From positions 1 through 64,000 of the IMG/VR virus record IMGVR_UViG_3300031088_000782: a stretch of DNA of 64,000 nucleotides, one strand, 5' to 3'. Each line of letters starts with the position of its first letter. Positions within the stretch are counted from its first letter, which is position 1. The position numbers and the translations under genes are program-made. The notes beneath the pieces were generated by a model. The model saw only the letters and a list, made by a program, of their open reading frames with translations. It was not told the origin of the DNA and did not search any database. Origin of the DNA: a virus. Its lineage: Duplodnaviria; Caudoviricetes. This document shows, piece after piece, positions 1 through 64,000 of the stretch.

Positions 1-21
1 TTGAGAAGGGATCAAGATAAA

Positions 22-976
22 ATGAGCAACTTGTACCATATAAACAAAGAGACAGGAAGAGTCAACATCTGCCGAGCCACAAAACAAAAATGCCCCTACG
101 GTGGAAAAACCGGACAAGAAAATCATTTCGCAACAAAAGAAGAAGCAAAACAGCATAACGAAAAAATTCTTTCAGAAATTTATTCAAACACAACATCGCT
201 GCGAAAAACCAAAAACTCTAAAAATCAATCAAACGCAAATTTAAACGACAGAAAATACAAAAGAAAAACTGTCCCCACGATGAATCAAGAACAAGCGTCT
301 AAGCTCACAACAGAGATGTATCAAGAATTCGAAAATTTAAAAAAAACAATTGACAAAAGACGAACAAAGAGCACTACACTTCTACTCAGGAAACGGAGCA
401 GAAAAAATTAACAACTTACTCAGAGAAACAGCAACAGAAGAAGAAATGAATAAAATCAGCAAAAAGACCGGATACGAAATAGCAAAAGAAATCACACCAG
501 TATTAGACAACTTAATGAAAGAACACGGAAACGGAGAAAACAAAGAACCCAAAAAACTTTACCGATACATAGAACTACCAGAAAAAACAAAAATTGACCA
601 ATACATTCAAGAAAATTTTGAAAACACTGACGAATATACTGACAAAGCATTCATCAGCACAACAGAAGATCCGGAACACATAGCAGGATTTATTCACGCT
701 TATGGAAAAAAGAAAAAATACGTGCTACTCGAAATAGAAACCAACAAAGGAATCAGCCTGCAAGAAAAACCAGAAGAGATGGCTGGATGGCTAGCAAGCT
801 TCGAAAAGGAAAGACTGCTACCAAGAGACATGAAATTTTCTATCGAATCCATCAATGAAACAGCTATCAAGCCTAACCCAACAAGAGAAACCCTTACTCG
901 CCAATTCACTACCTTTGCAGACCCCAAAATAGAACCAGCACAATTGAGAATGATAACACTAAAAGAAAAAGAATAA
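22..976 (+). pseudogene. ADP-ribosyltransferase (VIP2/C2-like R-S-E clade) with N-terminal H-C-C-H domain, split by a frameshift at the A8 run 339-346
   Basis: RBS GAAGGGA precedes ATG 22. Frame 1 (to 411) and frame 2 (341-976) join as ...EFENLKKQLTKDEQRALHFYSG... if one A is removed from 339-346. ART motifs: KLYR, FISTT, FEKERLLPR (ExE). Confidence 0.75.
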
Positions 977-983
977 TCCTTAG

Positions 984-1012
984 TTGACAAAAATAGTTTA
1001 CTATGGTATACT
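984..1012 (+). promoter_or_regulatory. Consensus housekeeping sigma70/SigA promoter for the restriction endonuclease
   Basis: TTGACA 984-989, 17-nt spacer, TATACT 1007-1012 with extended -10 TG. Confidence 0.8.
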
Positions 1013-1067: not shown

Positions 1068-1808
1068 ATGAGTAGCAATATCAATATTTTAAAAGAATCC
1101 ATCAATGATGTTCATATGGAAAATCTCATTTCCGCTATAAAAGAAGGAAAATCGAAATATTTTTCGCATGGAGCAAGAAGCCCCAAAAAGATCGAACCCA
1201 TCCACAAGGCAATAGCTGAAATATTTGATGCAGAAAAGACTTTGACCGTTAAATCAAAAGGAATCGGAGACGATAAAGAGGAAAAAGTTGCCGGAGTCTT
1301 TTATGATAAAGATTGCGACATAACCATAAAGAATACGGAGAACAATAAAACCTCAGTCGTGGAAGTAAAATTTATCACTACAAACTATAAGCAGAACGCT
1401 AATAATTACTTTGAAAATCTTCTGGGAGCAACTGACAATTTACGAAGAAATAACATCAATGTGTCACAAGTTGTCATCCTCCCTAAAACTATTCCTTACC
1501 TAAAACGAGAAGGAATAGTTTCAAAACTAGAGATCATCAACGACAGAGATATTAGCAAATACCGAAAATTGATGGCAAACACAGAATACACATCCTCACC
1601 AAACAACCTTCTTTTCTTACTCATTGACATGTGGGCAGAAGTAAAAATTGGAGATATGCTCAAAAATGCTGTCATCCACAAAGAAAGTAATGTCAATATG
1701 ATAGATGTTATGAATTCAAACTTTAGCGAAGAAAATATTGAATTCATAAAAAATCACAGCAATTACAATGAATTTATTCAAAAAGTAAAAAATGATGTTA
1801 TGGCTTAA
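1068..1808 (+). CDS. Putative type II restriction endonuclease (PD-(D/E)xK)
   Basis: DCDITI...VVEVKF nuclease motif; convergent with and overlapping a DNA methyltransferase. Confidence 0.7.
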   Translation: MSSNINILKESINDVHMENLISAIKEGKSKYFSHGARSPKKIEPIHKAIAEIFDAEKTLTVKSKGIGDDKEEKVAGVFYDKDCDITIKNTENNKTSVVEVKFITTNYKQNANNYFENLLGATDNLRRNNINVSQVVILPKTIPYLKREGIVSKLEIINDRDISKYRKLMANTEYTSSPNNLLFLLIDMWAEVKIGDMLKNAVIHKESNVNMIDVMNSNFSEENIEFIKNHSNYNEFIQKVKNDVMA

Positions 1809-3270
1809 ATTTTTTAATCATACTTGATGATACTGTTTTATAATCTCCACTCAAATCTTTACCAACAATACGGCAATACTTTAAAAAATCTTCACTTTCG
1901 ATAATCTTCTGCAATTCTTCCAAAGAAAGATTATCGGAAAAAAGATTTCTTTCGTTAGCTGTAACAAACAACCCACTATAAATAAGAACATTAGAAGGAA
2001 CAACATATGTTTTAATAGTTTTTTGAGAAGGACTTATAACAGGACTAAACACTATTTTTTCCTTAGAAGTCTCCTGTATAGACTGACTCCTTCCATACCA
2101 AAACCAACTACTGCCTTTATCAAGAGACCTTTCCAACAATTTTTCCTTATTGTTTAGCAAATATTCATAAACAATCGGAGAATTAGCCAGCTCATCTTCA
2201 CTTATACCCCTGAAAGAATCACCAATCTTTTTATAAGGAAAAACAATTTTTTTAGTTATTGCTTCACCCTTATACTTAGACCCTTTAATAATAGGATAAA
2301 CATAATCGTTTTCTCCCAAATCCTCATTATCTATTAAAAAAAACTTATCTCCAAGAGTAGCAATCCCATTTTGAACTTTGCATAACTCAGAAAGACTCTC
2401 TCCGTCTTCTTTAAACAAAAAATTATTCAACAATAATTGATCCTCTTCAGAAGGAAAAGCAAAACTATCATTTTTTGATAAATCTATTTCTGAATAATTG
2501 ATTTTTCTTACATAGTTTTCTTCTAAATCCTTTTTAGCATCAACATACTCCAAAAAATTCGCATTTTCTTTTGACAAATAAGAGATACATGTATATGTTC
2601 CAACCTTATCAAAAACTTTATCAGCGTTGAAATTGACAATTTTATTCAACTGTCCATGATCAATAACATTCTTTCGAAAAGATTTTTGTGAAACATTTCT
2701 TAACCAAGAATTAGGAGTAATATAAGCAAGTCTGCCGTTTTTACTTAACATAGACAAGCCGATTTCAAAAAATATAATATACAAATCCGTACTCCCCTTC
2801 GAATGCGAATATGTCTTTACCTTCTTTCGCATATCAGCAGGCATATCATGAATTCTTATATAAGGAGGATTACCCACGACAAAATCAAACTTATCGAAAA
2901 TTTCAAAATCCAAAGTATCCATATTATAAAAATTCTTCAACTCAGGAGACAAAGAATACTCATCTGCCAGCCAACCCTTCAAACTTTCAACAGTGAAATC
3001 ATAGACATCTTTGTCATACTCAATAGAATAAACATTATCATCAATAATATTTTCGATTTCATTGTTAGATAAATTATTGATCAAAGAACATTCAATCAAC
3101 CTTTTTATTACTTCAAAAAGAAAAACCCCAGTTCCAGAAGAAGGCTCCATAATGCTTTGATGTAGAATAGAGTCATTATCTGAAGTATACCCAATTTCGT
3201 CAAGCATATTTTCAACAATATAATCAGGAGTCCAAACTTGCCCTAATTCTTCTTTACAAACAATTGTCAT
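1798..3270 (-). CDS. N6-adenine DNA methyltransferase (Eco57I/TaqI-like, gamma class)
   Basis: GQVWTP, motif I MEPSSGTGVF, motif IV VGNPPY, TDLYIIFFE, YITPNSW. Start moved to ATG 3270 after an AAAAGG RBS. Confidence 0.9.
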   Translation of the reverse strand: MTIVCKEELGQVWTPDYIVENMLDEIGYTSDNDSILHQSIMEPSSGTGVFLFEVIKRLIECSLINNLSNNEIENIIDDNVYSIEYDKDVYDFTVESLKGWLADEYSLSPELKNFYNMDTLDFEIFDKFDFVVGNPPYIRIHDMPADMRKKVKTYSHSKGSTDLYIIFFEIGLSMLSKNGRLAYITPNSWLRNVSQKSFRKNVIDHGQLNKIVNFNADKVFDKVGTYTCISYLSKENANFLEYVDAKKDLEENYVRKINYSEIDLSKNDSFAFPSEEDQLLLNNFLFKEDGESLSELCKVQNGIATLGDKFFLIDNEDLGENDYVYPIIKGSKYKGEAITKKIVFPYKKIGDSFRGISEDELANSPIVYEYLLNNKEKLLERSLDKGSSWFWYGRSQSIQETSKEKIVFSPVISPSQKTIKTYVVPSNVLIYSGLFVTANERNLFSDNLSLEELQKIIESEDFLKYCRIVGKDLSGDYKTVSSSMIKKFKP

Positions 3271-3325
3271 TATGAAACCTTTTCTTTTTCGCAATTCTCT
3301 ACTGTTTAATTATATCAAATAACAC

Positions 3326-5170
3326 TCAACTCTTCGCTCTCACAAAACGAATCTTTCCAGAATCCCACACCCGATCAAACCCATTTAACTCAGCAAGCTC
3401 CCTTTCAGACAAACCCTCTTCAAAAACCAGAAAAGGATCATTCTTAAACTTTGACAAACGAAAACCGAATTTATGGAAACGCTTATTCCCAATCACATAA
3501 GAATAATCAGGCGGAACAATCCCATCAATATTCCAACCAGTCTTTTCATACAAACCACCATCGCTAAAAGACAAATCAGCAAAAGTTACGAGACGTTCAA
3601 ACTCATAATTATTTTCAAAGAATTTGACAATTTTGCTGTGACCACCAACAACATGAACACAAGTAGCATAACGAGTCAAAGTATAATCACTTTTATTTTT
3701 AACGAAAGCAGCAACAGCAATAAGTTTCTTGCTCAATTTGTCAAATAAACCAAGATAAACAGAAGACCCAACAAACCCCTGAATATGGTAAGAATCCAAA
3801 AAACTTGAAGCTTCAAATTTTTCAATAACCTTCACAAAAGTATTGCGAGCAAAAACACGTTCAGAAGAAACACCTAAAACATGCTTAATATGAGATTTAA
3901 CAATATCTTGTTTATTGTCCCACTCATCCTCCCAAATCTGAAGTAAACGAACATTCTTATTCTTAGCCAATTGGAATTTATCTTTATGAAAATTTCGCCC
4001 CTTGAACTTCTCACTATGCCAATACAATCCATTGAACTCAATTCCAACATTCAAATCAGGAATGAAAACATCAATCTCTTTCCCATTAAGAATCTCACGA
4101 TCATTCTCAATAACTTCAAAACCCAAAGATTTAACAAAATTAGCCAAATCTTTTTCTTTTTTGGAAACGTTTCTGGTTCGACATTTTTTGCAACCCTCCA
4201 ATCCTTGAAGTATTCTAAAAATAGAGTAAGTAAAATATTCAAAATGTTTATTGCATTTTAAAACAGTATCACCTTGAAGACTATTTTTTAGCACAGTTTT
4301 GTCGAATCCATATCTGTTTTCACCATGAACACCTTTAACTCTTTCAATGAATTCCTCTAATGTTGTTGATCTATTTTCTTTATCACAAAGATTACAACCT
4401 GTCTTTCCCATCAATAGGCCATCAAGTGTTTGAGTGAAAAATCCATGTTCAGTAACAGAACATCCAATAGTTTGCTTTTCTCGAATCCCTTTATTCCAAT
4501 CTACTTGTGAAAAATCGAATTTTTTACTATGCACTTTAAAAGATTTTTCAATAATAACTTCTTTCGACATTTTCAAAGTTTTAGAACACTTATAGCATCC
4601 AATCATTTTATTCAAATTGGACCAAGCTTCTTGAATATATTCCACATTGTGAATATTACAAATCAAAACCACCTTAGTGTGAATTCCTTTAATCTCAGAA
4701 ACTTTTGAATAATCAAACCTATCCTCTCCGAAGATATTTTTTGATCTTTTTATAAATTCATCACGATCAATAGGTTTTTGACCATTACAATCAGTGCATC
4801 CATTAAATCCCTTCATAAAAGCCTGGGGGTTTTGAAAAAAGAAAACATCATGTTCAACACATTTAATCTTTACTTTTTCATTCATCTTAGTATAAACGGT
4901 TTCTGAAAAATCAAATTTGTCCTCACCATGAATTTTAATTGATCGTCTGATGAAATCCTCATTTGTCAACCTTTTCCCCCCGCAATCAGGGCATCCATTT
5001 TGAGATTGAAGTATTTTTCCGGGACGCATCGTAAACTCTAAATCATGCTTTTTACATACAACAGTAACAGGAGTGGTCGAATTTTTATAAATAGATTTAC
5101 TGAAATCAAGATCTGGAGACAAAGATTCTGCTCTTTCAACAAACTCTTTTTGAGTCAATTTTTTAGGCAT
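3326..5170 (-). CDS. Homing-endonuclease-like protein: 5 DUF723-like Zn repeats + PD-(D/E)xK/Vsr-like nuclease + C-terminal GNAT-like domain
   Basis: Five ~65-aa repeats (F..R...IHG..FDFS...C..H.....GC..C); EIDVFIPDLNVGIEFNGLYWH; C-terminal YHIQG..VYLGLF..LTRYA..GGHSK. RBS AGGGG before ATG 5170. Confidence 0.75.
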   Translation of the reverse strand: MPKKLTQKEFVERAESLSPDLDFSKSIYKNSTTPVTVVCKKHDLEFTMRPGKILQSQNGCPDCGGKRLTNEDFIRRSIKIHGEDKFDFSETVYTKMNEKVKIKCVEHDVFFFQNPQAFMKGFNGCTDCNGQKPIDRDEFIKRSKNIFGEDRFDYSKVSEIKGIHTKVVLICNIHNVEYIQEAWSNLNKMIGCYKCSKTLKMSKEVIIEKSFKVHSKKFDFSQVDWNKGIREKQTIGCSVTEHGFFTQTLDGLLMGKTGCNLCDKENRSTTLEEFIERVKGVHGENRYGFDKTVLKNSLQGDTVLKCNKHFEYFTYSIFRILQGLEGCKKCRTRNVSKKEKDLANFVKSLGFEVIENDREILNGKEIDVFIPDLNVGIEFNGLYWHSEKFKGRNFHKDKFQLAKNKNVRLLQIWEDEWDNKQDIVKSHIKHVLGVSSERVFARNTFVKVIEKFEASSFLDSYHIQGFVGSSVYLGLFDKLSKKLIAVAAFVKNKSDYTLTRYATCVHVVGGHSKIVKFFENNYEFERLVTFADLSFSDGGLYEKTGWNIDGIVPPDYSYVIGNKRFHKFGFRLSKFKNDPFLVFEEGLSERELAELNGFDRVWDSGKIRFVRAKS

Positions 5171-5254
5171 AATATCCCCTTTTCTTTTAATCTCTATATA
5201 AAATATCTTACCAAAAGTTGCGGAAAAATTTAAAAAATACGAATAAAAGCACAC

Positions 5255-5298: not shown

Positions 5299-5328
5299 AT
5301 CAAAAACTACGAAATTCGTTTTTAATTG

Positions 5329-6333
5329 TCAGAAATCCCAGTCATCATCGTCCATATCCTCCGCTTTACCTACGATATACTGACTACTGGATTGGCTGAA
5401 AAAGTCGTGATTCTCATTAGATGGGTCAAGAGATGCCAAAATCTGCGGAGCAATAGTGGTTTCCTCTTTACCAAAGATTCCTTCAAACCCAAGATTGTTC
5501 AAAGCTTTGTTTGCATTGTATTTAAGGAATTTCTTAACTTCTTCAGTCAATCCCAAATCATCATAAATAGATTCGGTGTAGTGCTCTTCATTTGCGAAAA
5601 GATGATTCAAAAGTTCGATTGTGAAATCATACAATTCTTTTTGGCGTTCAGGTGTTGATTCATTGTAAGCTTTTTGGAATTTATAACCAATGTAATAACC
5701 ATGAATTGACTCGTCACGGACTATTAAGGAAATTATTGATGCTGTATTTGTCAATTTTCCTTTACTTGACCACCAAAGCGGCATGAAGAATCCTGAGTAG
5801 AACAAGAATGATTCAAGAAGGGTTGAAGCAATCTTTCGTTTCTCTGGGTCATCTCCACGGTAATAGTGTAAAACGATAGCTGCTTTCTTTTTCAGAAATT
5901 CGTCTTCTCTTGACCAACGAAACACTTCTTCAATTTCTTTACTTGATAAAAGAGTTGAGAAAATACTTGAATAAGATTTTGCGTGAACAGATTCCATAAA
6001 AGCAATGTTAGTATAGATTGCCTCTTCATGGGGGGTTCTGGCATCGGGAATGAGCGAAATAGCACCAACGCGACTTTGTATGGAATCCAAGAGAGTTAAA
6101 CCAGCAAAAATTTTTGCTGTTGAGTCTTTTTCTTGTTCAGTAAAGGTGTTCCATGAAGAGAGGTCATTACTGATCGGCACCTTAGTGTCAATCCAAAAGT
6201 TCTGCACCAAGCGTTGCCAAATTTCCAAATCTTTTTCATCTTCAATTTTGTTCCAGTTAATTGCTTCTTCAAGTTTAACATCGTCAATATTGAAATCGTC
6301 AAGTGTTGTGGGAGTTTCATTGTTGTCTGTCAT
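5329..6333 (-). CDS. nrdF: Class Ib ribonucleotide reductase beta subunit
   Basis: AINWN, LTLLD, MESVHAKSYS, LLESFLFYSGF, RDESIHG and C-terminal DDDDWDF; all metal ligands and the radical Tyr are present. Confidence 0.97.
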   Translation of the reverse strand: MTDNNETPTTLDDFNIDDVKLEEAINWNKIEDEKDLEIWQRLVQNFWIDTKVPISNDLSSWNTFTEQEKDSTAKIFAGLTLLDSIQSRVGAISLIPDARTPHEEAIYTNIAFMESVHAKSYSSIFSTLLSSKEIEEVFRWSREDEFLKKKAAIVLHYYRGDDPEKRKIASTLLESFLFYSGFFMPLWWSSKGKLTNTASIISLIVRDESIHGYYIGYKFQKAYNESTPERQKELYDFTIELLNHLFANEEHYTESIYDDLGLTEEVKKFLKYNANKALNNLGFEGIFGKEETTIAPQILASLDPSNENHDFFSQSSSQYIVGKAEDMDDDDWDF

Positions 6334-6447: not shown

Positions 6448-8106
6448 TCAATCGTCATCATCTAAATCGAATGCGCTTCTTTCTATGCCAAGGTCTTCAC
6501 CAGAATTTATTTCATTTTTATCCGATGTTTTTGGGGTGTTGACTGTTTTGGATTTTGACGAATTTTGACTTTCTTCAATAATGTTTATAAATTCTTCTGG
6601 AAGGTCTACTTCTGGTAAGGAGAGTGAAGTATCATTTTCTTCTAAAATTATTTCATCAAGATCAAAAGCACTTTCTTCTACATCAAGGTCTTCATCATCT
6701 TCTTTTATCAATTGTTCAAGGTCTTTGCCTTTGATTTCGTCTTCATCAGGGAGGGATAGAGCTTCTTCATCTTCATTGTTTTTGTGAGAAAGAATCTGCT
6801 CTCTTTGTTTGGCTATTTCGGCCATGCTCAATTTTTTGGGTTCTTTCTTCTCATCAAGTTTTTTTGCAACATTTGCCGAAGCTACTCCGCTGGATATAGC
6901 ATTTGAACTGCTTTCAACAGCGTTTTCATTAATGTCTGGGAGAGGCTGTTCAGTTTCTTCGCTTTTATGAAGAAATTTCTTGTAGGTGATAATACCTTTT
7001 GCTGATTTATTGCCGAATTCCCATCCTTGTTTTTTCAGAAAATTTTCGATGCTGTTCTGTGTTCCATTGTTATTTCTGAATTTGACGCAAATTTCTTTCT
7101 TTTTCATCATTTCAGCAATTCTTCTGTAATCTTCGAGAATATATTTCAGAATTTTATGTCCATCTGTTTCTTGTCGATGGACTTTGATGTCATGTAATTC
7201 ATCAAAGTCTTTGTCAATTGTGTAGAAGGCTATCACCTTTCCGTTTTTGAGCACGACTCTGTAATTGGTGATTCCTTTTGCTTCGTTGCTTTTCATAAAC
7301 ATTTCGAAATCTTTTTCAGTAAGGTTGGATTGTTCGTTTGTTCGTGAAGTTGTGGTGTAGATTTCTTTTATTTTTTCGTAGTCTGAGGGGTGAAAATTTG
7401 AAAATTTTATCGAACTATTGATGATATAATCTTTTGGTAATAGTACAAATACTTGGAAAAGAGACAATATTGCAAACAGTGTGTTACAGAACAAATTGAT
7501 TGCTATTCCCATGAAAGACACAACAAGAGCTAAACCTATCAAGAGTATGATTACTGTGAAAGCTGAGTCAATTATTGTTCCTTCTTTCATAGTTGCGATT
7601 GGAAAAGATTGAACAATTGATTCTTTAATTTGGATTAATATTTCATAAATCCTTCCAGTGACAAACAGCTCTTTTACGATAACGAAAACAAAGGTTGATT
7701 GAATAGCAGCATGAGATAAGATAACTATGAAATTCATCAATGGTTTCTGCATTTGCTTTCCATAATTTGCACAGTATTCCATAATTTTATTATAAATAAA
7801 TTTAAGAATTATGGGAGTGGTGAAAAACATGAGGATGAATGTTATTGTCTCATATGCTGTTGGTTGAAAGAATGATTGGATGATCTCTGCTTCAGGGGAA
7901 CTTTTTCGTAAATAGGCAATGAGAAAGAAAAGCAGTGAGGCGGCTGTTGTAAGAATTAATGAGACTATCCAGAAGAAGGACTCTTTTCTTGTGTATTTAA
8001 TGAGTTTTCTGTTAGGGGAGTAGTCTTTTTGGGGTCTGCCTATTTTCCCTCTGTTGTCTTCTGTGACAAATAATTTCTTTTTTATATCTTGTATTTTGGT
8101 TTCCAT
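6448..8106 (-). CDS. Membrane protein with possible GNAT-like cytoplasmic domain and acidic tail
   Basis: About 4 hydrophobic segments; RVVLKNGKVIAFYTI...ENFLKKQGWEF pattern; D/E-rich C-terminus. Confidence 0.5.
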   Translation of the reverse strand: METKIQDIKKKLFVTEDNRGKIGRPQKDYSPNRKLIKYTRKESFFWIVSLILTTAASLLFFLIAYLRKSSPEAEIIQSFFQPTAYETITFILMFFTTPIILKFIYNKIMEYCANYGKQMQKPLMNFIVILSHAAIQSTFVFVIVKELFVTGRIYEILIQIKESIVQSFPIATMKEGTIIDSAFTVIILLIGLALVVSFMGIAINLFCNTLFAILSLFQVFVLLPKDYIINSSIKFSNFHPSDYEKIKEIYTTTSRTNEQSNLTEKDFEMFMKSNEAKGITNYRVVLKNGKVIAFYTIDKDFDELHDIKVHRQETDGHKILKYILEDYRRIAEMMKKKEICVKFRNNNGTQNSIENFLKKQGWEFGNKSAKGIITYKKFLHKSEETEQPLPDINENAVESSSNAISSGVASANVAKKLDEKKEPKKLSMAEIAKQREQILSHKNNEDEEALSLPDEDEIKGKDLEQLIKEDDEDLDVEESAFDLDEIILEENDTSLSLPEVDLPEEFINIIEESQNSSKSKTVNTPKTSDKNEINSGEDLGIERSAFDLDDDD

Positions 8107-8671: not shown

Positions 8672-9415
8672 GTGCAACTTATTATTGCTGATTGTTCTGC
8701 TATTTATTCTGGTCGAGGAGATACGTCTTTACCTCGCGGAGTGAGATCGATTATGGTGAAATCCGATGGATCTGTTTCTATTCATAATGATGTTGGAAAC
8801 AAGCCTTTGAATTATATGAAAACGGCATCTTTTTCTGAAACTTTTAACAATATTGGCGAAAAAGTGTGGACATATGATTCACGAAAGGAGTCTCTGTCAA
8901 TCACTATTCATTCCTTGTTGATGATGACTGAAATGCCTTTGATAGCTGAGGATCCTGGTCTTGAACGTGATGGAACTGAAAATCATCTGCAAGAGTGGTT
9001 GTCTCTTCATCCTGAAACTCTTGGTGCGGGTTTTTCTCTCATTTCAAGAGAATTCCCAACTGGCAAAGGTCCAGTGGATCTTCTGATGAAAGATGCAGAA
9101 GGAAATCCTGTTGCTGTGGAGGTAAAACGAGTTGCTATGCTGGGAGCTGTTGATCAGTGCAGGCGTTATCTTGATGGGTTAAAAGATCCAGAAAGTCAGC
9201 CTAATATTGAAAAATTCATTGATGAACACTCTCTTAGAGATTCAGGAATTATTGATGAAAAGTTCAGTTTACTTTCAGTTAGAGGAATGGTGGCAGCTGT
9301 GGATGTCAGACCAAAAACTTTCGATTGGGCACTCAAACATAACATTGAAACTGTAATCGTTCCTCATGACTGGAATGATCACAGCAAAAATGAAACCAAC
9401 TCTTCACCCGAATAG
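8672..9415 (+). CDS. nucS: Mismatch-specific endonuclease NucS/EndoMS
   Basis: IADCSAIYSGR, KSDGSVSIH, KPLNYM, REFPTGKGPVDLL, AVEVKR, VDQCRRY. Confidence 0.92.
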   Translation: MQLIIADCSAIYSGRGDTSLPRGVRSIMVKSDGSVSIHNDVGNKPLNYMKTASFSETFNNIGEKVWTYDSRKESLSITIHSLLMMTEMPLIAEDPGLERDGTENHLQEWLSLHPETLGAGFSLISREFPTGKGPVDLLMKDAEGNPVAVEVKRVAMLGAVDQCRRYLDGLKDPESQPNIEKFIDEHSLRDSGIIDEKFSLLSVRGMVAAVDVRPKTFDWALKHNIETVIVPHDWNDHSKNETNSSPE

Positions 9416-9525
9416 AATTTATTTGACATTAATGATTTTATTTTGAAAATTTTCTTATTATAGTTGCATAGATGATTCTTTTGTGTTATTATGTCATTAA
9501 TAATAACTTTATGAAAGGATTTATC

Positions 9526-13721: not shown

Positions 13722-13750
13722 TTGACTTTTAAACTGAAATCTAATATAAT
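13722..13750 (+). promoter_or_regulatory. Consensus SigA-type promoter
   Basis: TTGACT 13722-27, 17 nt, TATAAT 13745-50; implies the downstream gene starts at GTG 13797. Confidence 0.75.
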
Positions 13751-13796
13751 GAAAACATACGATTTTATAAATAAGAAAGAACAATGGAGAAATATT

Positions 13797-20810: not shown

Positions 20811-20848
20811 GTAGTTATTGAACATTTACACGATGATTGGAGAAAATA

Positions 20849-34260: not shown

Positions 34261-34360
34261 TGCTATATGAGATATTGATATAGGCACAGCTGAAATGTTA
34301 GATGCTGTGTCTATATTTCTTTAATCGAACATATAGCAAAAGAGTTTGGTGGTTTGTGTA

Positions 34361-41788: not shown

Positions 41789-41818
41789 GTGAATTAAACT
41801 AAGAAAAGGATTATTATA

Positions 41819-54729: not shown

Positions 54730-54922
54730 ATTATTATTCTACTGAAAGAAGTAATTTTATATTAATTTTCAATCACGATAATTAAATATAAATTGTTATA
54801 AAAAACTTCATTTTTCGGGAATGTTTGCATTGATGCTTGAGTTACAATAAAGCATGTGCTTATTCTCGAAAGTGGAGTTAGCGGCATTTGTAAGTAAAAG
54901 TATAAGATTAGTGAGGAAAAAT

Positions 54923-55837
54923 ATGAGCAAAGACAAGCATTTGGACAAAGAAGAAGAGCTGCGTTTAGGGTTTCTGATTCAAGATATGCTAAAATCTCGG
55001 GAAATATTGAAAAATAACGAGTTTGAGTTGACAGAGAATGAAGTGTCCATTATTAAAGATAAAATCATCCTGGGAGAGAACGCAGTCGCAAAATTAGTTG
55101 AAGCTTATACAGGATTAGTTCATAATAAAGCAAGAATCTTCAAATCAAAGTATCCAGGTGCACCCGATCTTGATGACATTATTCAAGATGGTATGGCAGG
55201 ATTGCTGAATGGTATTTATCATTATGATCCAACACGCGGAAATAAAGTTTCTACAGTAGTTTCATATTGGATTTTTCAGTCCATTACCCGCTGGACAAAC
55301 AAAACCGGAAGATTAGTTAGACTTCCAGAAAATCGCGTCTCGGATTTTAGTAAAATTTCAGAAATGAGAGCCTCCCTTGACTTCAAAGGCTACACCCCCA
55401 AAGAAGCTGATGAAAAAATTATGAAAGATCTTAACCTTTCTGAAGAAGATCTTTATTACATTACGAATGCCGCGTCTACCCCAGCAAGTTTGAACAAAGT
55501 CGTTTCTTCCGATGAGTCTACAACAAAAGAGCTTATGGATATTGTGACAGAAGATCAAACCTCTGAATCATCCGAAGATCTTGTGATGAAGAATGCCGTT
55601 TATGACATTCTTTCTGACTGTTTCGAAGATCTGAGCGAACTTCAGGTTGATACTGTTGCGTCTACATTCATGTTAGACGGATTTGAAAGCGGACAAATGA
55701 ATGCCAAACAAGTTCGAGAAAAGCATGGTGTATCCCCCACAAAATTTAAAAAACAACTTGGGGAAGCATTGAAGATAATTAAGGTGAGACTTGATGAAAT
55801 TGGAATTAGTTATCAAGACTTTTTTGAGCACAGTTGA
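54923..55837 (+). CDS. RNA polymerase sigma-70 family factor (RpoD-like regions 1.2-3, divergent region 4)
   Basis: LDKEEELRL, DIIQDGMAGLLNGIYHYDPTRGNKVSTVVSYWIFQSITR, RLVRLP, SLNKVV; GAGG RBS before ATG 54923. Confidence 0.9.
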   Translation: MSKDKHLDKEEELRLGFLIQDMLKSREILKNNEFELTENEVSIIKDKIILGENAVAKLVEAYTGLVHNKARIFKSKYPGAPDLDDIIQDGMAGLLNGIYHYDPTRGNKVSTVVSYWIFQSITRWTNKTGRLVRLPENRVSDFSKISEMRASLDFKGYTPKEADEKIMKDLNLSEEDLYYITNAASTPASLNKVVSSDESTTKELMDIVTEDQTSESSEDLVMKNAVYDILSDCFEDLSELQVDTVASTFMLDGFESGQMNAKQVREKHGVSPTKFKKQLGEALKIIKVRLDEIGISYQDFFEHS

Positions 55838-55953: not shown

Positions 55954-56286
55954 ATGAGCATATTAAAAAAATACGAAACAGACAACAGCCTTTATTTATT
56001 CATAGCTTTTCACAATTCATATGATGATTCAGTACAGGCATCACAAGCAAAACTTGAAAAACTAATGAAAGAAATTTTCAAAAATGATGAAAGATACCAT
56101 TTGATGTCTTCAGGTGAAGAAATAGAAGATAATGAGATTATTTATCGTTTTCAAAAACCACTCATGGCTTCTGAAAGAGAAACACTTGCTTTTTTCACAA
56201 AACTGAAATTAGTTTTTCAAATGACTTCAGAAATGTCGCCTCATTTCACTCAAATGACCGCAGAAGACAAAGGAGCTAATAAATAA
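55954..56286 (+). CDS. Hypothetical protein
   Basis: 110 aa; TAATG-coupled to the next gene. Confidence 0.7.
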   Translation: MSILKKYETDNSLYLFIAFHNSYDDSVQASQAKLEKLMKEIFKNDERYHLMSSGEEIEDNEIIYRFQKPLMASERETLAFFTKLKLVFQMTSEMSPHFTQMTAEDKGANK

Positions 56287-57572
56287 TGAATGCATTATTT
56301 ACTAAAGATAATTTAAAGAAACAATCAGCTGATTTTAGAATTGGTGCTATTATTTCTGATGGTATGTGGTATTCGCTCCCTAAGTGGAGAAAATTAGCTA
56401 AAGTTTCAGAAGAAGAAATTAACAAATGGATTGATGAAAAACTTGATGAAGGAGTTTTGATACAATCTCCCACAGGTGCAAAATCATATCGTTTCCCTTT
56501 GACTGAAATTTACAAATGGTATGACGAACATGAACTTCCTTTGGGTGTTCAACTGATTGATTCTATCTTCCCTCCACGAATTTGGGACGAAATGACAGAG
56601 ACAGAAGGTTTTCTTTCTGCTCCATTGAGGAAAATAGGAATCGTTTCTTTTTCTTGCGGCTCTGATGTTGCATTAGAGATAACTCAGGCATTAAGAGGAA
56701 TAGCAAAGATTAGAGAAACTGATCCCGGAAGATATAAAGCATATTCTTTAAGCTCATCTTATGTAAAAGAAATTATTGAAGATATCTTAAAAAAGCATGA
56801 GCCAATTTCTGCGAATAGAAAAATTTATTCAAGAGCTGAGTCGAAGCGAAGAGAGATGGTTGATTTTACTCCTGATTTCGCTCATGGTTTAGTAATGTTC
56901 TACAAGCAATTTGCAAAAACTTTGGTAAAGAAGTTTATGGATACAATTCAGATTTTTGTTCCTGATCCTGAAGATCAAGAATCTCAAATTCTCATTTGGG
57001 TGATTGCATCTATTGAAAAATTTGATGAATCAGCATCGGTTCCTTTCAGTGGCTATCTCAACAGTGTTCTTAACAGGAGACCTTTTGATCTTCCATCAGA
57101 TCATCTTGGCAAAGAATTAAGCTCGTTCCAAAGAAATCGTTCTCGTAGCATTAATGCCATGAAGAAACGTTTTGGTGAGGATAAGAACTTCACTAATGTG
57201 GAGATAGCTTCAGAGATGGGTATGGCACAGATCAAATTTAACGATTTGGAAGAAAAGCACAGAGTGTGGACACGATCAAGAAATACAACAACTCTTACTT
57301 GGGATGAGAATGCTGATGAGAAATCTATCGAATCTAATCTTTCTGGAGATTTCAGCGGTTCGGGTGATTCTGATATATTACTTGCAAACAAACTTTCACA
57401 ATCGGTTATACAAACAGCTATCAACACAGGTCTTTATGAAGATGCTTTTGCAATTATCAGCCAAATAGATCTTTCTGAAATCAATGTCAGTAAAATACAG
57501 TCGATTTCCGAACCTTTCATTCAAGAACTTGGATTTGTGTTAGGAGTTGAAGGAGAACAGCAAAATGGCTAA
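56286..57572 (+). CDS. Divergent sigma-70-like protein with N-terminal Xis/MerR-like HTH
   Basis: ESQILIWVIASIEKFDESASVPFSGYL (region 2-like), TNVEIASEMGM (region 3-like HTH), N-terminal YSLPKWRKLAKVSEEEINKW..YRFP. Confidence 0.5.
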   Translation: MNALFTKDNLKKQSADFRIGAIISDGMWYSLPKWRKLAKVSEEEINKWIDEKLDEGVLIQSPTGAKSYRFPLTEIYKWYDEHELPLGVQLIDSIFPPRIWDEMTETEGFLSAPLRKIGIVSFSCGSDVALEITQALRGIAKIRETDPGRYKAYSLSSSYVKEIIEDILKKHEPISANRKIYSRAESKRREMVDFTPDFAHGLVMFYKQFAKTLVKKFMDTIQIFVPDPEDQESQILIWVIASIEKFDESASVPFSGYLNSVLNRRPFDLPSDHLGKELSSFQRNRSRSINAMKKRFGEDKNFTNVEIASEMGMAQIKFNDLEEKHRVWTRSRNTTTLTWDENADEKSIESNLSGDFSGSGDSDILLANKLSQSVIQTAINTGLYEDAFAIISQIDLSEINVSKIQSISEPFIQELGFVLGVEGEQQNG

Positions 57573-58903: not shown

Positions 58904-59086
58904 TTGTGTTTTTCGAGAACTTTTTTGGAAAATTGCTTTTATAGTATCACCTATCATATTTTTGTTATTTTTCTCTCAAAATCCTTTCTGTGCTTTTTTA
59001 AACTCATTTTGAAAATTTGATTTTTGAAATTATTGCATAAGAAATTGATAAAATAAAAGTAACTGCCTATGACGAAAAGGATAAGT

Positions 59087-61372
59087 ATGAGCATCAAATT
59101 AAAAAGAGTTGAACTGTCTAATTTCAGAACACATGATCATATTGTGTTTTCACCTGAAAATGATGGAATAACAGCTATCAGTGGTCCTAATGGGTCGGGG
59201 AAATCTACTATTGTCGATTCTGTTGTTTGGGCTTTGTATGGAGTCAAGCCCCAAGGAGTAAGCAAAAATTCAGACTTAACAAAAAGTGATGTTAAATTAG
59301 AGAAAAATGGAAAAGAAGCTTTTGTTAGTGTCAATATTGTCATAGATGGCCAAGAACTGAAAATTAAAAGATTCTTCACTGATGGCGGAAAGCATGTGCA
59401 ATGCACTGTCTCAGAAACAGGAGTTGATGATAAAGGCATACCTTATGAAAATAAAAAAGCAGGAGATGCTGTTTCTGATGCTGAATCATACATTAGACAA
59501 ATTATGAAAATGGACAAAAAAGGATTTCTTGCGGCTATTCTCGTTCAGCAGAAACAAGTTGATAATCTTATTGCAGCAGGATCAAAAGAACGTGCACAAG
59601 TTATTGAAAAATTGATTGGTGTATCATCAATCACTAAGGCGTTAGATTCAGCAAGAGAGCATAATCGTGAACTTAAAAAAGAATTTGATTACATTGATGT
59701 AAATGAAGAAGATTTCGAAAAATTAAAAAAAGAAAAAGAAAAATCAGATAAAGACTTTGAAAAGAATCAGAAAATTCATGCAGACTTAAAAATCAAACTT
59801 AAAGAAATTATTGAAAAAACGAAAGAATCTAGAGAAAAACTAAATTCAGAAACTTCAAAAATAAATTCCGTAGAAGAATTTAATCAAATAGTTGTCACTT
59901 TGCAGGCTCAGATCAAAGCTCAGGAAGAAACTCTGGAAGCCGTCATAGTTGAGAAGAATAGCAAAAAAGAGCAATTGTCTCGTGCAGAAGCAGGAGCATC
60001 TATTGATGAACTCGAACCGCAAGTTCAAGAGCATAGAAGAAAGATAAGACAACTTGAGAACGAAAAATCATCTATGCAAAAAGATCTTGATGAAGCTAAA
60101 AAAGAATTGAAAAATGCTCAGGATTTGATTGAAAAATCTTCTATAAAAACTACCGAAGAAGCTGAGAGTGGATTAGCAAAGAAAGAAGCACAGCTCATTG
60201 CTATGATCAATAAATTAAACAATTCTCGTGCTGAAATCCTATCTTCTGATTCCGAAGTTAAAAAACTTGATAAAGCAATCAAAGTTTTGTCTAATGGTGA
60301 TGGGACATGCCCTACTTGTCTTCAGCATGTTGAAGATGTTTCGGATGCAATTAAGGTTCTCAACTCTCAAAAAGATGAGTTGTTGAGAAAAAAAGAAGAA
60401 GAAAAAGCCAATGTTGAAACATATGAAATCAATATTGAGAAAGTTAATCAAATTATTGAAAAATTTAATCAACTTATCGAAGCTATCAATATTGATGAAG
60501 TTCTTGCTGAAAGCATTACGGAAGATGAAAAAGAAATTCAAAAGCATTCAAGCATGATAAAGGTTTCAGAATCAGAATATGCTGCTTTTGACAAGGTTTA
60601 TCAAGCTGCGAAACGTAAAAGCGAGACAAAAGAAGAATATGACAGACTTCTTTCTCGTTCAAAGAACATCAGTAATGATATAAACACGAAAAACAAAGAG
60701 CTTGAGGAAGCACAAAAAGCCATCAAAGAGTCTGGTGTTATTAGTTCGTCTGCTTTGGAAAAACTTCGCAAAAATTTTGATGAATATTCAGCGAAATATA
60801 ATGATATCCGAGAGAAAGAAGGCAATGTCAGAGTTGACTTGAATGTTTCTGCTGAAAGATCGAAAAATCTTCAGGAAAAAGTTAACGAATACAAGAAACG
60901 ATTAGATCTTCATAGTGAGTTAGTAAAAACTTATGAAATTGCTACAACTACCACCAAAGTTCTTGAAGAATTCAGATCTGATAGAATAGATAATTCCATT
61001 CCAGTTATCGAAGTTTACGCTTCTGATTTGTTAAACCGTTTCACTGATGGAATGTTTACTAGATTGAAAATTGATTCAAAGTTCAATACCAAAGTCGTTC
61101 GATCTGACGGCAGGGAAGTTGCGGTAGGTTTGCTTTCAGGTGGAGAGCTTTCAGCAACAGCAATTGCTTTAAGATTGTCAATTTCAATGTTGTTGAATGG
61201 AGGAGGATCGGAAAATTTGATAATTCTTGATGAAGTTTTGGTTTCCCAAGATGATAACAGAGCAAGTCTTATTCTATCTACTATCAAAGAGGTTTGTAAA
61301 GGTCAAGTTATTCTTGTTGCCCATAATAGTGTAACTGACGAAATTTCAGATAAAGTGTTTGATTTGAGATGA
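59087..61372 (+). CDS. sbcC: SbcC/Rad50 SMC-family ATPase
   Basis: Walker A GPNGSGKST, Q-loop LVQQ, Zn-hook CPTC, signature LSGGE, Walker B ILDE, H-loop VAH. Confidence 0.92.
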   Translation: MSIKLKRVELSNFRTHDHIVFSPENDGITAISGPNGSGKSTIVDSVVWALYGVKPQGVSKNSDLTKSDVKLEKNGKEAFVSVNIVIDGQELKIKRFFTDGGKHVQCTVSETGVDDKGIPYENKKAGDAVSDAESYIRQIMKMDKKGFLAAILVQQKQVDNLIAAGSKERAQVIEKLIGVSSITKALDSAREHNRELKKEFDYIDVNEEDFEKLKKEKEKSDKDFEKNQKIHADLKIKLKEIIEKTKESREKLNSETSKINSVEEFNQIVVTLQAQIKAQEETLEAVIVEKNSKKEQLSRAEAGASIDELEPQVQEHRRKIRQLENEKSSMQKDLDEAKKELKNAQDLIEKSSIKTTEEAESGLAKKEAQLIAMINKLNNSRAEILSSDSEVKKLDKAIKVLSNGDGTCPTCLQHVEDVSDAIKVLNSQKDELLRKKEEEKANVETYEINIEKVNQIIEKFNQLIEAINIDEVLAESITEDEKEIQKHSSMIKVSESEYAAFDKVYQAAKRKSETKEEYDRLLSRSKNISNDINTKNKELEEAQKAIKESGVISSSALEKLRKNFDEYSAKYNDIREKEGNVRVDLNVSAERSKNLQEKVNEYKKRLDLHSELVKTYEIATTTTKVLEEFRSDRIDNSIPVIEVYASDLLNRFTDGMFTRLKIDSKFNTKVVRSDGREVAVGLLSGGELSATAIALRLSISMLLNGGGSENLIILDEVLVSQDDNRASLILSTIKEVCKGQVILVAHNSVTDEISDKVFDLR

Positions 61373-61460
61373 TATAAGTGAATTTTATAGGTTTTATCTG
61401 ATCTTTTCGGTGTTTGATATTAATATTTAAACACACAGTCCGTTTATTTGAGGAGTTTTA

Positions 61461-64000
61461 ATGTACAATATTTCTGAGTGGCCTGAATGGAATGCATGTC
61501 TCAATATTCTTTTGGATCCAGAGGTTTCCGAAATAGCAAGCAATGGGCCTAACAGTTTCTTCGTTGTGAAAAACGGAAAAAGAATAAAGTTAGACATTAA
61601 AGTTGCTTCCGAAGAGAAATATGCTGAAGGTGTTGAAAAAGGGCTTGTTCCCAAAGTAAAGACAACCAGGGACTTTGACATCAATGGTTATCTATTTGAA
61701 GGTAGGCTCACTTACAGCGCAGGTGGTACTGAAGTCATCGCTCGTTGTCACATTGGACTTTCTCCTTCAACTGTTACTCCACAAGTTTCCATTGCGAAAA
61801 AGAGTGCATCTTTACGTAATCTTGATTCAATTGCTTCACAAGGATCAATGAGTACAGAGATGATGAACTTTTTGAAAATGACTGTGGATGCGGGGTTGAC
61901 AACAGTGCTTTCAGGTGGAACCGGAGCCGGGAAAGAGGTACATAAAAATACTCTTATTCCAACCCCTTCAGGAATGCGAAAAGTTGATGATTTGAACATT
62001 GGTGATACAATTTTTGATGAAGTTGGTAAAAAAACCAAAATTGTTAACAAATATTCACCAAAAGATCCTAAACATTACAGATTGACATTCAATGATGGAA
62101 CAACTGTTGATGCGGGTATGGGGCATTTGTGGAAAGTATATGCACTGAACGAAAAAGTGAATTTCGGCCATAAATCTCATCCTATTCTTGATGAATCTCA
62201 AGTTGCTAATTTAAACAATATTCTTAATGAAGAAGAAGAATTTATTACTTTTTCTGAACTTAGAGAAAAAATTGGTGGAAATATCGACAAAACTGGATCT
62301 ATAAGAGAAACAGTCAAAGGTTTTGGCACAAAAGCAATTGATTTTTTTAATTTTGAGAAAGATTCAGTTGTTGAAAAAATCAAAAAATCAACAATCAATG
62401 AAAAAGATAAGAATGAAATCCTGAAAAGATTTAATACTGTTCAAGAGTCTTCTTTGTCTTTGAGAAAAGTGAAAGAACTTGTTGATAGCAGATATTTCGT
62501 TTCTAAGATTCTCCCCACTGAGCACAAAATTTCACAAGAAACAGTGTTTGTAAAGAAAGAAGTTGCTACACATCTTTTGAAAGATGACGAATTAAGAAAA
62601 GAAGCAAGAAAAAATCTTGACAAATCTTATCAAAGTGCTACTCGCCCTGTGAAAGTGATGACCACTCAAGAATTGGTTGATTATGGAGTAGTTAATAAAA
62701 AAGGGCGTTTAAATTTTGCTGTTGAAAGCTTACAGAATCCTGTTGAATACGATAAGCAAGATCTTCCTATTGATCCTTATACTCTAGGTGCCTGGTTAGG
62801 TGATGGATATTCAGCAACCGGAAGTATTTGCGGAATAGATAAAGAAGTTATTGAAAAAATTTATGAAAATGGGTTTAACTACAAAGAAAGACAGGATTTT
62901 AACGAAAGACAGAATATTCCTCTGAGTATTTGGACAGTTGAGGGTTTGAGTAAACTTCTCAGAGAAAACAATTTGAAGAACAATAAGCACATTCCAGAAA
63001 TTTACAAATATTCTTCTGTTAAACAAAGAATTCAATTACTTTCAGGATTGCTTGACACCGATGGGACTTTGGATTATCGTCGTGGAACAGTTCATGTTGG
63101 AATGACTGTTGAAAGCATTGTTAAAAACATGAGAGAAATAGTTTGCTCTCTCGGATGGCACGCTACTCCTGTTATTTCTCGTGAGAGAAGCTACAAAGCT
63201 GCTGACGGAACTAAAGTTGAGTGCAAGGATAGTTACGGCTTCAGTTTTGTTCCTGATGTTCAATTGTTTAATATTTCAAGAAAAGCGAAACTTCTGCATG
63301 AAAGATTAGGTAGAGATATTTCTCAGCAAGACAGACGAAACAGGCACTATATCAAAGATATTCAGTTGATTGAAGACGCTAAGGCCGAGGACTATTACTG
63401 CTTTGAAGTAGATTCAGCAACTCATATGTTCTTGTGCTCTGAGTCTTTCATTCCTACTCATAACACTACTATGCTTGAAGCCATGACTAAATTGTTCCCG
63501 AATGATTATAGAATTGCTGTTGCCGAGGATATTCCTGAACTTGTTCTTGTCCAGCCTAACGTCACTTATTGGGAGGCTGTTCCGTTTGTTCCTGGTATGG
63601 ATCCGAATGAAGTTGCCACTTTGCAGTGGGTTGTGAAGCAGTTCCAGCGTAATAGAAATGACAGAATCATCATTGGTGAGACTCGTGGCGCTGAGTTTTC
63701 TGAATTCTTAGTCGCTGCTAACTCTGGTAAAAACGGTTCTTTGACAACAATCCACGCTGATGATCCTGTATCATGCTTGAGAAAGATGACAAATTTTGCT
63801 ATTCAAGGTTTCGGAGGATTGAACATTCGTTCTGTTAACACTGAATTATCTACTGCTGTAAATATTATTGTACAGTTGAATAGGTTCCCTGACACTGGAA
63901 GGCACCGTGTGACTCAAATTCAAGAAGTTACACAAACTTTGAGTAATCAGGAGAATGCTCAAATTTCTACTCAACCTTTGTATTCTTATGATCCGTTGAG
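61461..64000 (+). CDS. cpaF: CpaF/TadA (VirB11-family) secretion ATPase with intein; 3' end beyond the window, so absent from the ORF track
   Basis: GAGGAG RBS; DPEVSEIASNG, SGGTGAGK|intein|TTML, VAEDIPEL, DRIIIGETRG, GSLTTIHA. I translated it open to the window end. Confidence 0.9.
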   Translation, partial: MYNISEWPEWNACLNILLDPEVSEIASNGPNSFFVVKNGKRIKLDIKVASEEKYAEGVEKGLVPKVKTTRDFDINGYLFEGRLTYSAGGTEVIARCHIGLSPSTVTPQVSIAKKSASLRNLDSIASQGSMSTEMMNFLKMTVDAGLTTVLSGGTGAGKEVHKNTLIPTPSGMRKVDDLNIGDTIFDEVGKKTKIVNKYSPKDPKHYRLTFNDGTTVDAGMGHLWKVYALNEKVNFGHKSHPILDESQVANLNNILNEEEEFITFSELREKIGGNIDKTGSIRETVKGFGTKAIDFFNFEKDSVVEKIKKSTINEKDKNEILKRFNTVQESSLSLRKVKELVDSRYFVSKILPTEHKISQETVFVKKEVATHLLKDDELRKEARKNLDKSYQSATRPVKVMTTQELVDYGVVNKKGRLNFAVESLQNPVEYDKQDLPIDPYTLGAWLGDGYSATGSICGIDKEVIEKIYENGFNYKERQDFNERQNIPLSIWTVEGLSKLLRENNLKNNKHIPEIYKYSSVKQRIQLLSGLLDTDGTLDYRRGTVHVGMTVESIVKNMREIVCSLGWHATPVISRERSYKAADGTKVECKDSYGFSFVPDVQLFNISRKAKLLHERLGRDISQQDRRNRHYIKDIQLIEDAKAEDYYCFEVDSATHMFLCSESFIPTHNTTMLEAMTKLFPNDYRIAVAEDIPELVLVQPNVTYWEAVPFVPGMDPNEVATLQWVVKQFQRNRNDRIIIGETRGAEFSEFLVAANSGKNGSLTTIHADDPVSCLRKMTNFAIQGFGGLNIRSVNTELSTAVNIIVQLNRFPDTGRHRVTQIQEVTQTLSNQENAQISTQPLYSYDPL
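61935..63464 (+). mobile_element. 510-aa intein with LAGLIDADG homing endonuclease, inserted in the P-loop (GK|T)
   Basis: Block A EVHKNTLIPTPSG, block B DAGMGHLW, blocks C/E LGAWLGDG and SGLLDTDG, block F YYCFEVDS..HMFL, block G PTHN|T. Confidence 0.92.

Follow-up and report, generated by a model that had tools for sequence, protein, structure and literature searches.

We examined a 64,000-nucleotide window that forms bases 1 to 64,000 of a 309,534-bp IMG/VR record (IMGVR_UViG_3300031088_000782, here G000), together with the whole record and four large relatives. We consider it probable that this DNA is one member of a giant conjugative element family not yet described, probably of Actinomycetota and built largely from genes of phage type, because a full DNA-transfer machine is accompanied by no detectable capsid or packaging genes. 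The element, probably extrachromosomal, is at least 319 kb long and lies on a 681.6-kb contig. Its family is widespread and uncultured, has members of 0.3 to 0.8 Mb, and is placed among tailed phages by automated pipelines; our literature search found no published description of it. We use the words "plasmid" and "conjugative" in an inferred sense, because no relaxase was matched, both a linear and a circular form fit the sequence, and 359 kb of the parent contig lie outside the data.

The relatives came from IMG/VR, where a search with a single protein gave no match and a search with an alignment gave four large records: G001 (344,889 bp), G002 (420,240 bp), G003 (437,576 bp), and G004 (398,101 bp). 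Together with G000 these make five records, of 310 to 438 kb, that share gene order; 155 of the 357 open reading frames (ORFs) of G001 are shared with G000, in conserved order. All five carry the C-terminal half of a VirB4 ATPase (AAA_10), its N-terminal half, a coupling protein, TadA, TadB and TadC, FtsK, and a sigma factor. Relatives of the coupling protein form at least 174 clusters at E < 1e-168, and the longest contig that carries one has 828 kb; in independent assemblies, contigs of about 344 kb and of about 400 kb recur. Among 185,579 species genomes there was no occurrence of the coupling protein, and megablast and tblastn against 50,697 phage records were null for the 12-kb type IV secretion system (T4SS) region, the coupling protein, and the ORF at 32389-34260. 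A sequence-only reading of the window had proposed an under-described class of conjugative megaplasmid. Five records that lack every tailed-phage hallmark tested and that have VirB4, the coupling protein, the Tad proteins, FtsK, and sigma support that proposal.

We searched the five records in six frames with eleven hallmark Pfam models: five for terminase, two for capsid, two for portal, one for sheath, and one for prohead protease. None of the five records gave a match with the terminase models (Terminase_6N, Terminase_6C, TerL_ATPase, Terminase_3, and TerL_nuclease) or with Phage_capsid, Phage_portal, SPP1_portal, Phage_sheath_1, or Peptidase_S78; the controls for these ten were positive. 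Gp23 was null too, with a silent control. Within the window, no ORF of at least 100 aa matched a virion family, in agreement with the sequence-only reading, which had seen no virion genes there.

Beyond the window, G000 has 67 ORFs of at least 330 aa, and PHROGs was applied to 60 of them. No capsid, portal, sheath, or baseplate family appeared among the 60. The families obtained were those of replication, repair, nucleotide functions, homing endonucleases (a dozen), and UvsX-like and Dda-like proteins. Every match to "terminase" was on an intein-bearing protein, DnaB among them, or on the VirB4 ATPase half, and these matches are artefacts; matches to "tail" were confined to a lytic-enzyme domain. 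The sequence-only reading had offered a phage-plasmid hybrid as an alternative. In the strict sense, this is unsupported because the virion module was not found; a ParA-like gene is present. A conserved 781-aa protein of G000 (108497-110842) was considered as a capsid candidate and is actually a class A penicillin-binding protein (PBP) with transglycosylase and transpeptidase domains. It matches PBP2/PBP1A chains in the PDB (2.4e-28) and is 68% identical in G001 and about 51% in G003. Its closest cellular proteins, at about 30% identity, are led by Cellulomonas and Acidimicrobiales, mixed with Patescibacteria.

Between 34 and 87 kb of G000, almost all products are membrane proteins or ATPases. 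This block encodes three polytopic giants of 1,214, 1,360, and 1,019 aa (the last two of paralogous type, at 67973-75114), two pseudopilin-like proteins, a hydrolase with two transmembrane segments, and many single-pass proteins. Gene order in the block is conserved in G001 at 30 to 78% identity, and the pair formed by the GmrSD_C nuclease and the NikA-like protein (40985-42688) reaches 75%. We read the block as one machine and not a set of scattered genes. The sequence-only reading had named T4SS and Tad genes in the window, and these stand: the coupling protein, TcpC, TadE, and the lysozyme-type hydrolase are firm matches. For VirB6/TrbL the Pfam scores are 23.8 and 17.9 bits, below the cut-off, and the rest of the support is the polytopic topology. 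By E value, the best plasmid match of the coupling protein is on a Streptomyces plasmid (6e-22). Four of its relatives (P0004, P0028, P0031, and P0062) are proteins of 1.1 to 1.4 thousand residues with LAGLIDADG/Hom_end domains. Because these domains occur in oversized relatives, the coupling protein of other family members would carry an intein; the window copy has none.

A Tad-like cluster lies at 238.9 to 250 kb of G000, with a TadB-like protein, an intein-bearing TadA-like ATPase, and a TadC-like protein. The T2SSE gene at 239796-243005 stands between T2SSF genes at about 239.4 and 243.5 kb, an arrangement found in all five records. On the 3' side of these genes, the same cluster contains the VirB4 ATPase half and then the ParA-like gene (248787-250142).

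VirB4 is split. The protein encoded at 39537-40922 has VirB4/TrbE clusters as its neighbours in the ESM Atlas, and its Atlas model gives a TM value of 0.75 to 0.80 to AAA_10 proteins. By BLASTP, it aligns with residues 19-435 of an 847-aa VirB4-like protein of a Nocardiopsis linear plasmid (3e-31). The AAA_10 protein at 246398-247594 (398 aa; Pfam 8e-52; Walker A GQPGSGKT) aligns with residues 448-813 of the same Nocardiopsis protein at 34% identity (3e-63). The halves are 206 kb apart in G000 and 144 to 206 kb apart across the five records, and in every record they are separate open frames. Neither half has an intein-sized extension at the break. The stand-alone N-terminal half occurs in at least 168 protein clusters; the only fused forms found were five proteins of 821 to 833 aa, which are more distant (28 to 37% identity). 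VirB4 is thus encoded as two separate genes family-wide, which is new here.

Several points weigh against a conjugative element of Actinomycetota. All of the virion tests were sequence-profile tests, and many ORFs carry no annotation. On the parent contig, some 359 kb that precede the window lie outside the sequence examined. The rIIA-like protein, the homing nucleases, the tRNA arrays, and the IMG/VR call are all expected of a real huge phage. The TrbL/VirB6 and NikA matches are both below the Pfam cut-offs, and the relaxase models for MOBP, MOBH, MOBF, MOBT, and MOBQ (PF03432, PF07514, PF08751, PF02486, and PF03389) were null in all five records; the MOBV, MOBC, and TcpM types and oriT were outside this search. 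A search for WhiB was null, and an element of 35% GC would be unusual in a high-GC host. The topology evidence is equivocal: a length of exactly 55 bp recurs in the "ITR" of G001 and in the "DTR" of G002.

These records could instead represent a genuine huge tailed phage, with virion genes that are too divergent or lie in the other 359 kb and with the T4SS and Tad genes as accessories for adhesion, superinfection exclusion, or effector delivery. IMG/VR does file all five records as viruses, the Atlas clusters of the window proteins are mostly labelled Uroviricota, and many ORFs have no match in any library. The cargo also fits: rIIA, UvsX- and Dda-like proteins, ribonucleotide reductase, a dozen homing endonucleases, 66 tRNAs with a transfer-messenger RNA (tmRNA), PhoH, and Mom-like proteins. 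However, the ten hallmark models with working controls were null in five records, including G002 with its circular path, and PHROGs, which contains the terminases of cultured jumbo phages, gave only the intein and VirB4 artefacts. The conserved membrane-machine block of about 50 kb far exceeds accessory cargo. Moreover, the provirus caller excluded the other 359 kb, which would argue against strong viral hallmarks there. We judge a huge phage unlikely, and it keeps this much weight because the tests were profile tests only and 359 kb lie outside the data.

DNA transfer remains unproven because the five relaxase models were null. The same null result is compatible with a giant extrachromosomal element whose T4SS-like machine exports proteins, namely toxins or effectors of the ADP-ribosyltransferase (ART) and RHS types, and which spreads vertically or by another route such as an FtsK-type DNA pump. 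Candidate effectors are at hand in the window ART, an RHS toxin, and three ARTs plus an ART-PolyVal protein in G001, and FtsK-like ATPases are present in five of five records. In contrast, VirB4 and the coupling protein have their closest homologues on plasmids of actinobacteria and Bacillota, where neighbouring genes are annotated "conjugal transfer protein," and a NikA-like protein of the relaxosome type (a weak match) lies within the block. Relaxases are also diverse and often escape profile searches, and the Hodor paper met the same problem (PMC12934698). Therefore, we regard protein export as improbable. The acidic, poorly conserved ORF at 32389-34260, directly upstream of the coupling protein, was considered as a relaxase and rejected, as it has no HUH motif.

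We examined the borders of the record in its parent contig. IMG/VR classes G000 as a "provirus," excised at gene borders from a 681,645-bp MEGAHIT contig (ena:ERZ27247443:k141_1824489) of a phyllosphere (leaf-surface) metagenome. In the orientation of G000, this contig extends beyond the record by about 12.8 kb at the 3' end and, ahead of window position 1, by about 359 kb. In another assembly of this sample, a Logan contig has 829 bp more upstream of position 1, carrying another gene; these 829 bp have no match in G000, and the ends of G000 have no terminal overlap. A long-read study of the rice phyllosphere (PMC10973392) was rejected as the source, since its circular contigs begin at 36.8% GC and its text has no mention of this element. 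On both sides the flanks have a GC content of 33 to 39% and unchanged gene orientation, with no GC break at either cut. Because GC and gene orientation are unchanged across both cuts, the "provirus" borders are software borders and not integration sites, and G000 is not a closed genome.

The 55-bp "ITR" and "DTR" look like an assembler k-mer overlap artefact because both are exactly 55 bp, the length expected of assembler overlaps. G003 (IMGVR_UViG_3300012642_000011) has a mismatch-free 110,183-bp terminal inverted repeat (1-110183 and 327394-437576) so that the complete T4SS block is present twice, as are DnaG, sigma, the PBP, and the clamp. The genome could be linear, with long repeats at its ends, or circular, with one large inverted repeat. 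The assembly path of G002 is circular. At a strand switch in G000, we observed a noncoding island of about 1 kb (258,050-259,000) that is GC rich (52 to 58%) and contains six copies of GCGTCAGCG and five copies of GTGTGCGNNACAC, both nearly absent elsewhere in the record. The ParA-like gene is 8 kb away. The island has no Rfam match; at gathering thresholds, neither the window nor the stretch from 240 to 275 kb of G000 gave one. Candidate roles for the island are those of an iteron, a partition site, or an oriT.

The "provirus" label and the excision from a 681,645-bp contig, with relatives on contigs of 670 to 828 kb, raise another explanation, that an ultra-small, low-GC bacterium has this DNA as a segment of its chromosome (contigs of 0.67 to 0.83 Mb) or as a true prophage. 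The class A PBP, FtsK, sigma, tmRNA, and full tRNA set are genes of a cellular type, and the PBP resembles Patescibacteria proteins at its 30% level. However, cellular markers were missing. There were no 16S primer sites in G000, G001, or G003 except for one isolated 515F-like match in G001, which lies inside a protein-coding ORF and which we read as chance; 23S sites were absent from G000, the record checked for them; and the RNA polymerase beta' motif NADFDGD, the EF-Tu motif GHVDHGKT, and the RNA polymerase beta motif were absent from all three records (309, 345, and 438 kb). The 66 tRNA genes and the tmRNA of G000 are all at 145 to 178 kb, in a single redundant array with, for example, 8 tRNA-Met genes, and 180 of the 200 large ORFs are on one strand. 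Together with the continuity of GC and orientation over both borders and the absence of the coupling protein from 185,579 species genomes, this makes a chromosome or prophage very improbable.

The best VirB4 matches were on Nocardiopsis and Nonomuraea plasmids, and NucS in the window, an LGFP domain, and DUF3039 also point to Actinomycetota, as do the Streptomyces plasmid match of the coupling protein and the leading PBP matches. These features weakly suggest a host in that phylum. The size of the tRNA set would be accounted for if the host has a high GC content.

The proposed way of life can be described as follows. The element would replicate with its own bacterial-type replisome and nucleotide supply: DnaG, NrdF and NrdH, NucS, and SbcC in the window and DnaB, DnaE, the clamp, ligase, and gyrase elsewhere on G000. 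It would take over the host through its own sigma factor or factors, about 66 tRNAs, and tmRNA, the tRNAs offsetting a codon-usage gap with a probably high-GC actinobacterial host. Spread from cell to cell would occur by a Gram-positive-type type IV secretion/conjugation machine, aided by a Tad-like pilus. This machine would consist of the VirD4-like coupling protein, a TcpC/VirB8-like protein, the two-piece VirB4, three giant VirB6-like proteins, and a membrane-anchored hydrolase.

Much of the cargo resembles that of jumbo phages, with rIIA, homing nucleases, inteins, Mom-like proteins, PhoH, and ribonucleotide reductase. Therefore, the element would either be phage derived or exchange genes heavily with huge phages. 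A bolder version of this idea is that the family consists of capsid-less descendants of jumbo phages, or of their gene-sharing partners, in which a conjugation machine has replaced the virion. It would then be a distinct class of 0.3- to 0.8-Mb actinobacterial replicon that re-tools its host (sigma, tRNAs, tmRNA, signal recognition particle RNA, and a cell wall synthase) and keeps essential machines such as VirB4 in separate pieces. We offer this version tentatively and consider it rather doubtful.

We compared the family with known systems. In elements of the pCW3/ICEBs1/Tn916 type (MPF-FA), TcpH/ConG is the VirB6-like protein and TcpG/CwlT is the peptidoglycan hydrolase. These elements measure 18 to 75 kb, and their relaxases are known (MOBT, MOBP, or TcpM). 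They share with our family a part list of a coupling ATPase, TcpC, a VirB4-class ATPase, and a membrane-bound hydrolase, to which a large polytopic protein, a putative VirB6 in our family, would be added. Our family has no relaxase match; beyond that part list it has a cluster for a Tad-like pilus and two further T2SSE ATPases. The Nocardiopsis changdeensis linear plasmid NZ_CP074136.1 (144.8 kb) gives the best VirB4 match, and its VirB4 gene adjoins "conjugal transfer" genes, a cell wall hydrolase, and a MinD/ParA gene. It is smaller, its VirB4 is a single protein of 847 aa and not two genes, and the 26.5 kb inspected carry no annotated cargo of phage type.

Huge and jumbo tailed phages (the clades of Al-Shayeb et al. 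2020; Uroviricota in IMG/VR) are similar in size and have a tRNA array with tmRNA, rIIA, ribonucleotide reductase, PhoH, homing endonucleases, inteins, and NAD and tRNA repair genes. Unlike in those phages, terminase, portal, capsid, sheath, and prohead protease were undetected in our five records. The nearest published precedent is the "Hodor" megaplasmids (Yuan et al., bioRxiv 2026, PMC12934698), conjugative megaplasmids of >300 kb found inside a huge-phage collection, mostly without TerL. Hodors have VirB4, VirD4, a hard-to-recognise VirB6, and no canonical relaxase. These human gut elements are circular, have a GC content of 44 to 47% and a link to Bacillota, and carry a MOBH-like HD relaxase with a helicase and a conserved sortase-linked surface module; the word "tRNA" is absent from the main text of the paper (PMC12934698). 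Our family is like them in its size of >300 kb, its filing among huge phages, its VirB4 and VirD4, and its null TerL and relaxase models. It differs, by description only, in its phyllosphere origin, GC content of 35 to 44%, affinity to Actinomycetota, and null TraI_2 result in five of five records, as well as in its own replisome, 44 to 66 tRNAs, tmRNA, rIIA, many inteins and homing nucleases, and split VirB4. The giant linear plasmids of Mycobacterium avium (DNA Res 2026, PMC12803027) are described as having tRNA array units on actinobacterial plasmids, with type IV secretion mentioned. These plasmids, Inocles (PMC12340149), and Borgs are all giant extrachromosomal elements. Unlike our family, and going by description only, they have host-like GC, and their abstracts mention no phage-type cargo.

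If this interpretation is right, widespread "huge phages" of virus catalogues (at least 174 clusters, on contigs of up to 828 kb) would be a family of conjugative elements, and estimates of huge-phage diversity and host range would change. The Hodor precedent would extend from gut Bacillota to environmental, probably actinobacterial hosts. The family would also be a natural case in which a mating machine is combined with modules of phage type for replication and host takeover, which bears on phage-plasmid identity exchange, and a family-wide two-gene VirB4 would provide a test bed for the assembly of split molecular machines.

We scanned with Pfam all window ORFs of at least 100 aa that were not nested in a longer ORF (Table 1). 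The window is AT rich, as the sequence-only reading had said, with 32.9 to 38.7% GC in 4-kb bins against 35.0% for the whole record. That reading had also named nrdF, nrdH, dnaG, orn, sbcC, and an rIIA-like gene, and Pfam searches, precomputed Pfam assignments, or tblastn agree. For rIIA, tblastn matched rIIA-annotated genes in 2,765 phage records (best 3e-30). The homing-type nucleases (3326-5254, 40985-41788, and, weakly, 28028-29779) and the intein were confirmed by Pfam and by comparison with G001. The intein in the T2SSE ATPase (61461-64274) is real: it covers about 510 residues (159-668) in the Walker A loop (GxxGxGK|T), ends in HN|T with traces of LAGLIDADG, and is absent from the 414-aa G001 orthologue.

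Other names given to window genes held in part. The gene called thyX has a Thy1 match, which covers 41 residues of the model only. The Prim-pol call keeps a tblastn match of about 1e-6 over some 100 residues, and the same ORF (18818-20764) had no Pfam match, with a null result for Prim-Pol PF09250. Of the plural sigma factors, one passes Pfam and the second (56286-57572) is a language-model lead only; by Pfam there is one sigma factor each in G000, G001, G002, and G004 and two in G003. Firm Pfam calls in the window also include a VWA protein. Sequence searches of the PDB gave no match, or no meaningful one, for 39537-40922, 32389-34260, 13722-14903, 23892-24986, 49434-51128, 36843-38780, and G000 255397-257802.

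Table 1. Predicted features of the 64,000-nucleotide window and the matches behind them
Feature	Position	Strand	Evidence
ADP-ribosyltransferase-like protein (candidate effector/toxin)	350-976	+	Pfam ADPrib_exo_Tox 1.5e-9, above cut-off
N6 adenine DNA methyltransferase (Eco57I/N6_Mtase type)	1798-3294	-	Pfam 1.2e-27, 3.1e-15
DUF723 zinc-finger protein, homing-endonuclease-like	3326-5254	-	Pfam DUF723 5.8e-9; 42% identical copy in G003
NrdF, ribonucleotide reductase small subunit	5329-6333	-	Pfam 2.9e-89; 70% identity to G001 orthologue
552-aa protein between nrdF and NucS, 5 predicted transmembrane segments	6448-8106	-	No Pfam match, no G001 orthologue
NucS/EndoMS mismatch endonuclease	8672-9415	+	Pfam NucS_N and NucS_C
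HTH_3 (Cro/C1-type) transcription regulator	9472-10461	+	Pfam 7.1e-20
648-aa protein, weak prim-pol-like N terminus	18818-20764	+	tblastn ~1e-6, residues 27-127, to Enterococcus phage prim-pol proteins
rIIA-like protein, 850 aa, Bergerat-fold ATPase	20837-23389	+	HATPase_c_3 2.2e-9; tblastn
Protein with partial ThyX-like segment	23892-24986	+	Pfam Thy1 3.8e-8, residues 288-328 only (41 residues); no PDB sequence match
VKOR disulfide-bond oxidoreductase, 5 transmembrane segments	25092-25718	+	Pfam 7.3e-32; hydropathy
RNase_T/Orn-like exonuclease	26927-27523	+	Pfam RNase_T 2.7e-8
NrdH-like glutaredoxin	27591-27857	+	Precomputed PF00462
Mom-like/GIY-YIG (SegE-like) free-standing nuclease-type protein	28028-29779	+	Pfam, both weak, near or below cut-off
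DnaG primase, six domains	29769-31655	+	Zn_ribbon_DnaG 9.4e-30, DNAG_N 7e-27, Toprim, DnaB_bind
T4SS coupling protein (VirD4/TraG class), 811 aa, 3 N-terminal transmembrane segments	34346-36781	+	TrwB_AAD_bind and TraG-D_C, above cut-off
TcpC (VirB8-like) conjugation protein	36843-38780	+	Pfam TpcC 4e-11; Pfam match in 4/5 records
N-terminal half of split VirB4 ATPase, 461 aa	39537-40922	+	BLASTP, Atlas structure; without Pfam match, without Walker A
Membrane-anchored HNH/GmrSD_C nuclease	40985-41788	+	Pfam 1e-11
NikA-like protein, weak	41819-42688	+	Pfam 4e-5, below cut-off
TadE-like pseudopilin	42754-43329	+	Pfam TadE 5.7e-7; N-terminal transmembrane segment
Overlapping TadE neighbour	43326-43940	+	N-terminal transmembrane segment; no TadE Pfam match
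PIN-PhoH ATPase	44154-45581	+	Pfam PhoH 3e-41, PIN_4 2e-12
1,214-aa polytopic membrane protein, VirB6/TcpH-like	45716-49360	+	Pfam TrbL 4.4e-5, below cut-off; at least 7 transmembrane segments
Membrane-anchored peptidoglycan hydrolase (CwlT/TcpG role)	49434-51128	+	Phage_lysozyme2 6.7e-28; 2 transmembrane segments
Sigma-70 family factor	54854-55837	+	Sigma70_r2 above cut-off
Conserved 428-aa protein, putative second divergent sigma	56286-57572	+	Atlas feature score 0.90-0.92 to sigma clusters, lead only; 70% identity in G001
SbcC/Rad50-type nuclease ATPase	59069-61372	+	AAA_23 3.5e-22, SbcC_Walker_B, zinc hook
T2SSE (TadA/VirB11-class) secretion ATPase with intein	61461-64274, past window end	+	Pfam T2SSE 8.5e-20

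Further observations came from the parts of the records beyond the window. At 226568-232939, G000 encodes a 2,123-aa RHS-repeat protein of the polymorphic-toxin type, with DUF6531 and 8 RHS repeats. In G001, 115 kb that are not shared with G000 carry ADP-ribosyltransferases, NAD salvage and RNA repair enzymes, a Ter stress operon, helicases, a PP2C phosphatase together with a Ser/Thr kinase, and a tandem family of 16 copies, and no virion gene. The Ter cluster of G001, at 258 to 275 kb, is complete (TerC, three TerD, and TelA) and is linked to PRTase_2/TRSP, C-C bond lyase, StiP, and R2K genes. The tandem family, at 303145-321069, consists of 16 paralogues of about 380 aa that have no Pfam match and are absent from G000; the array adjoins the PP2C phosphatase, an M23 peptidase, and the Ser/Thr kinase.

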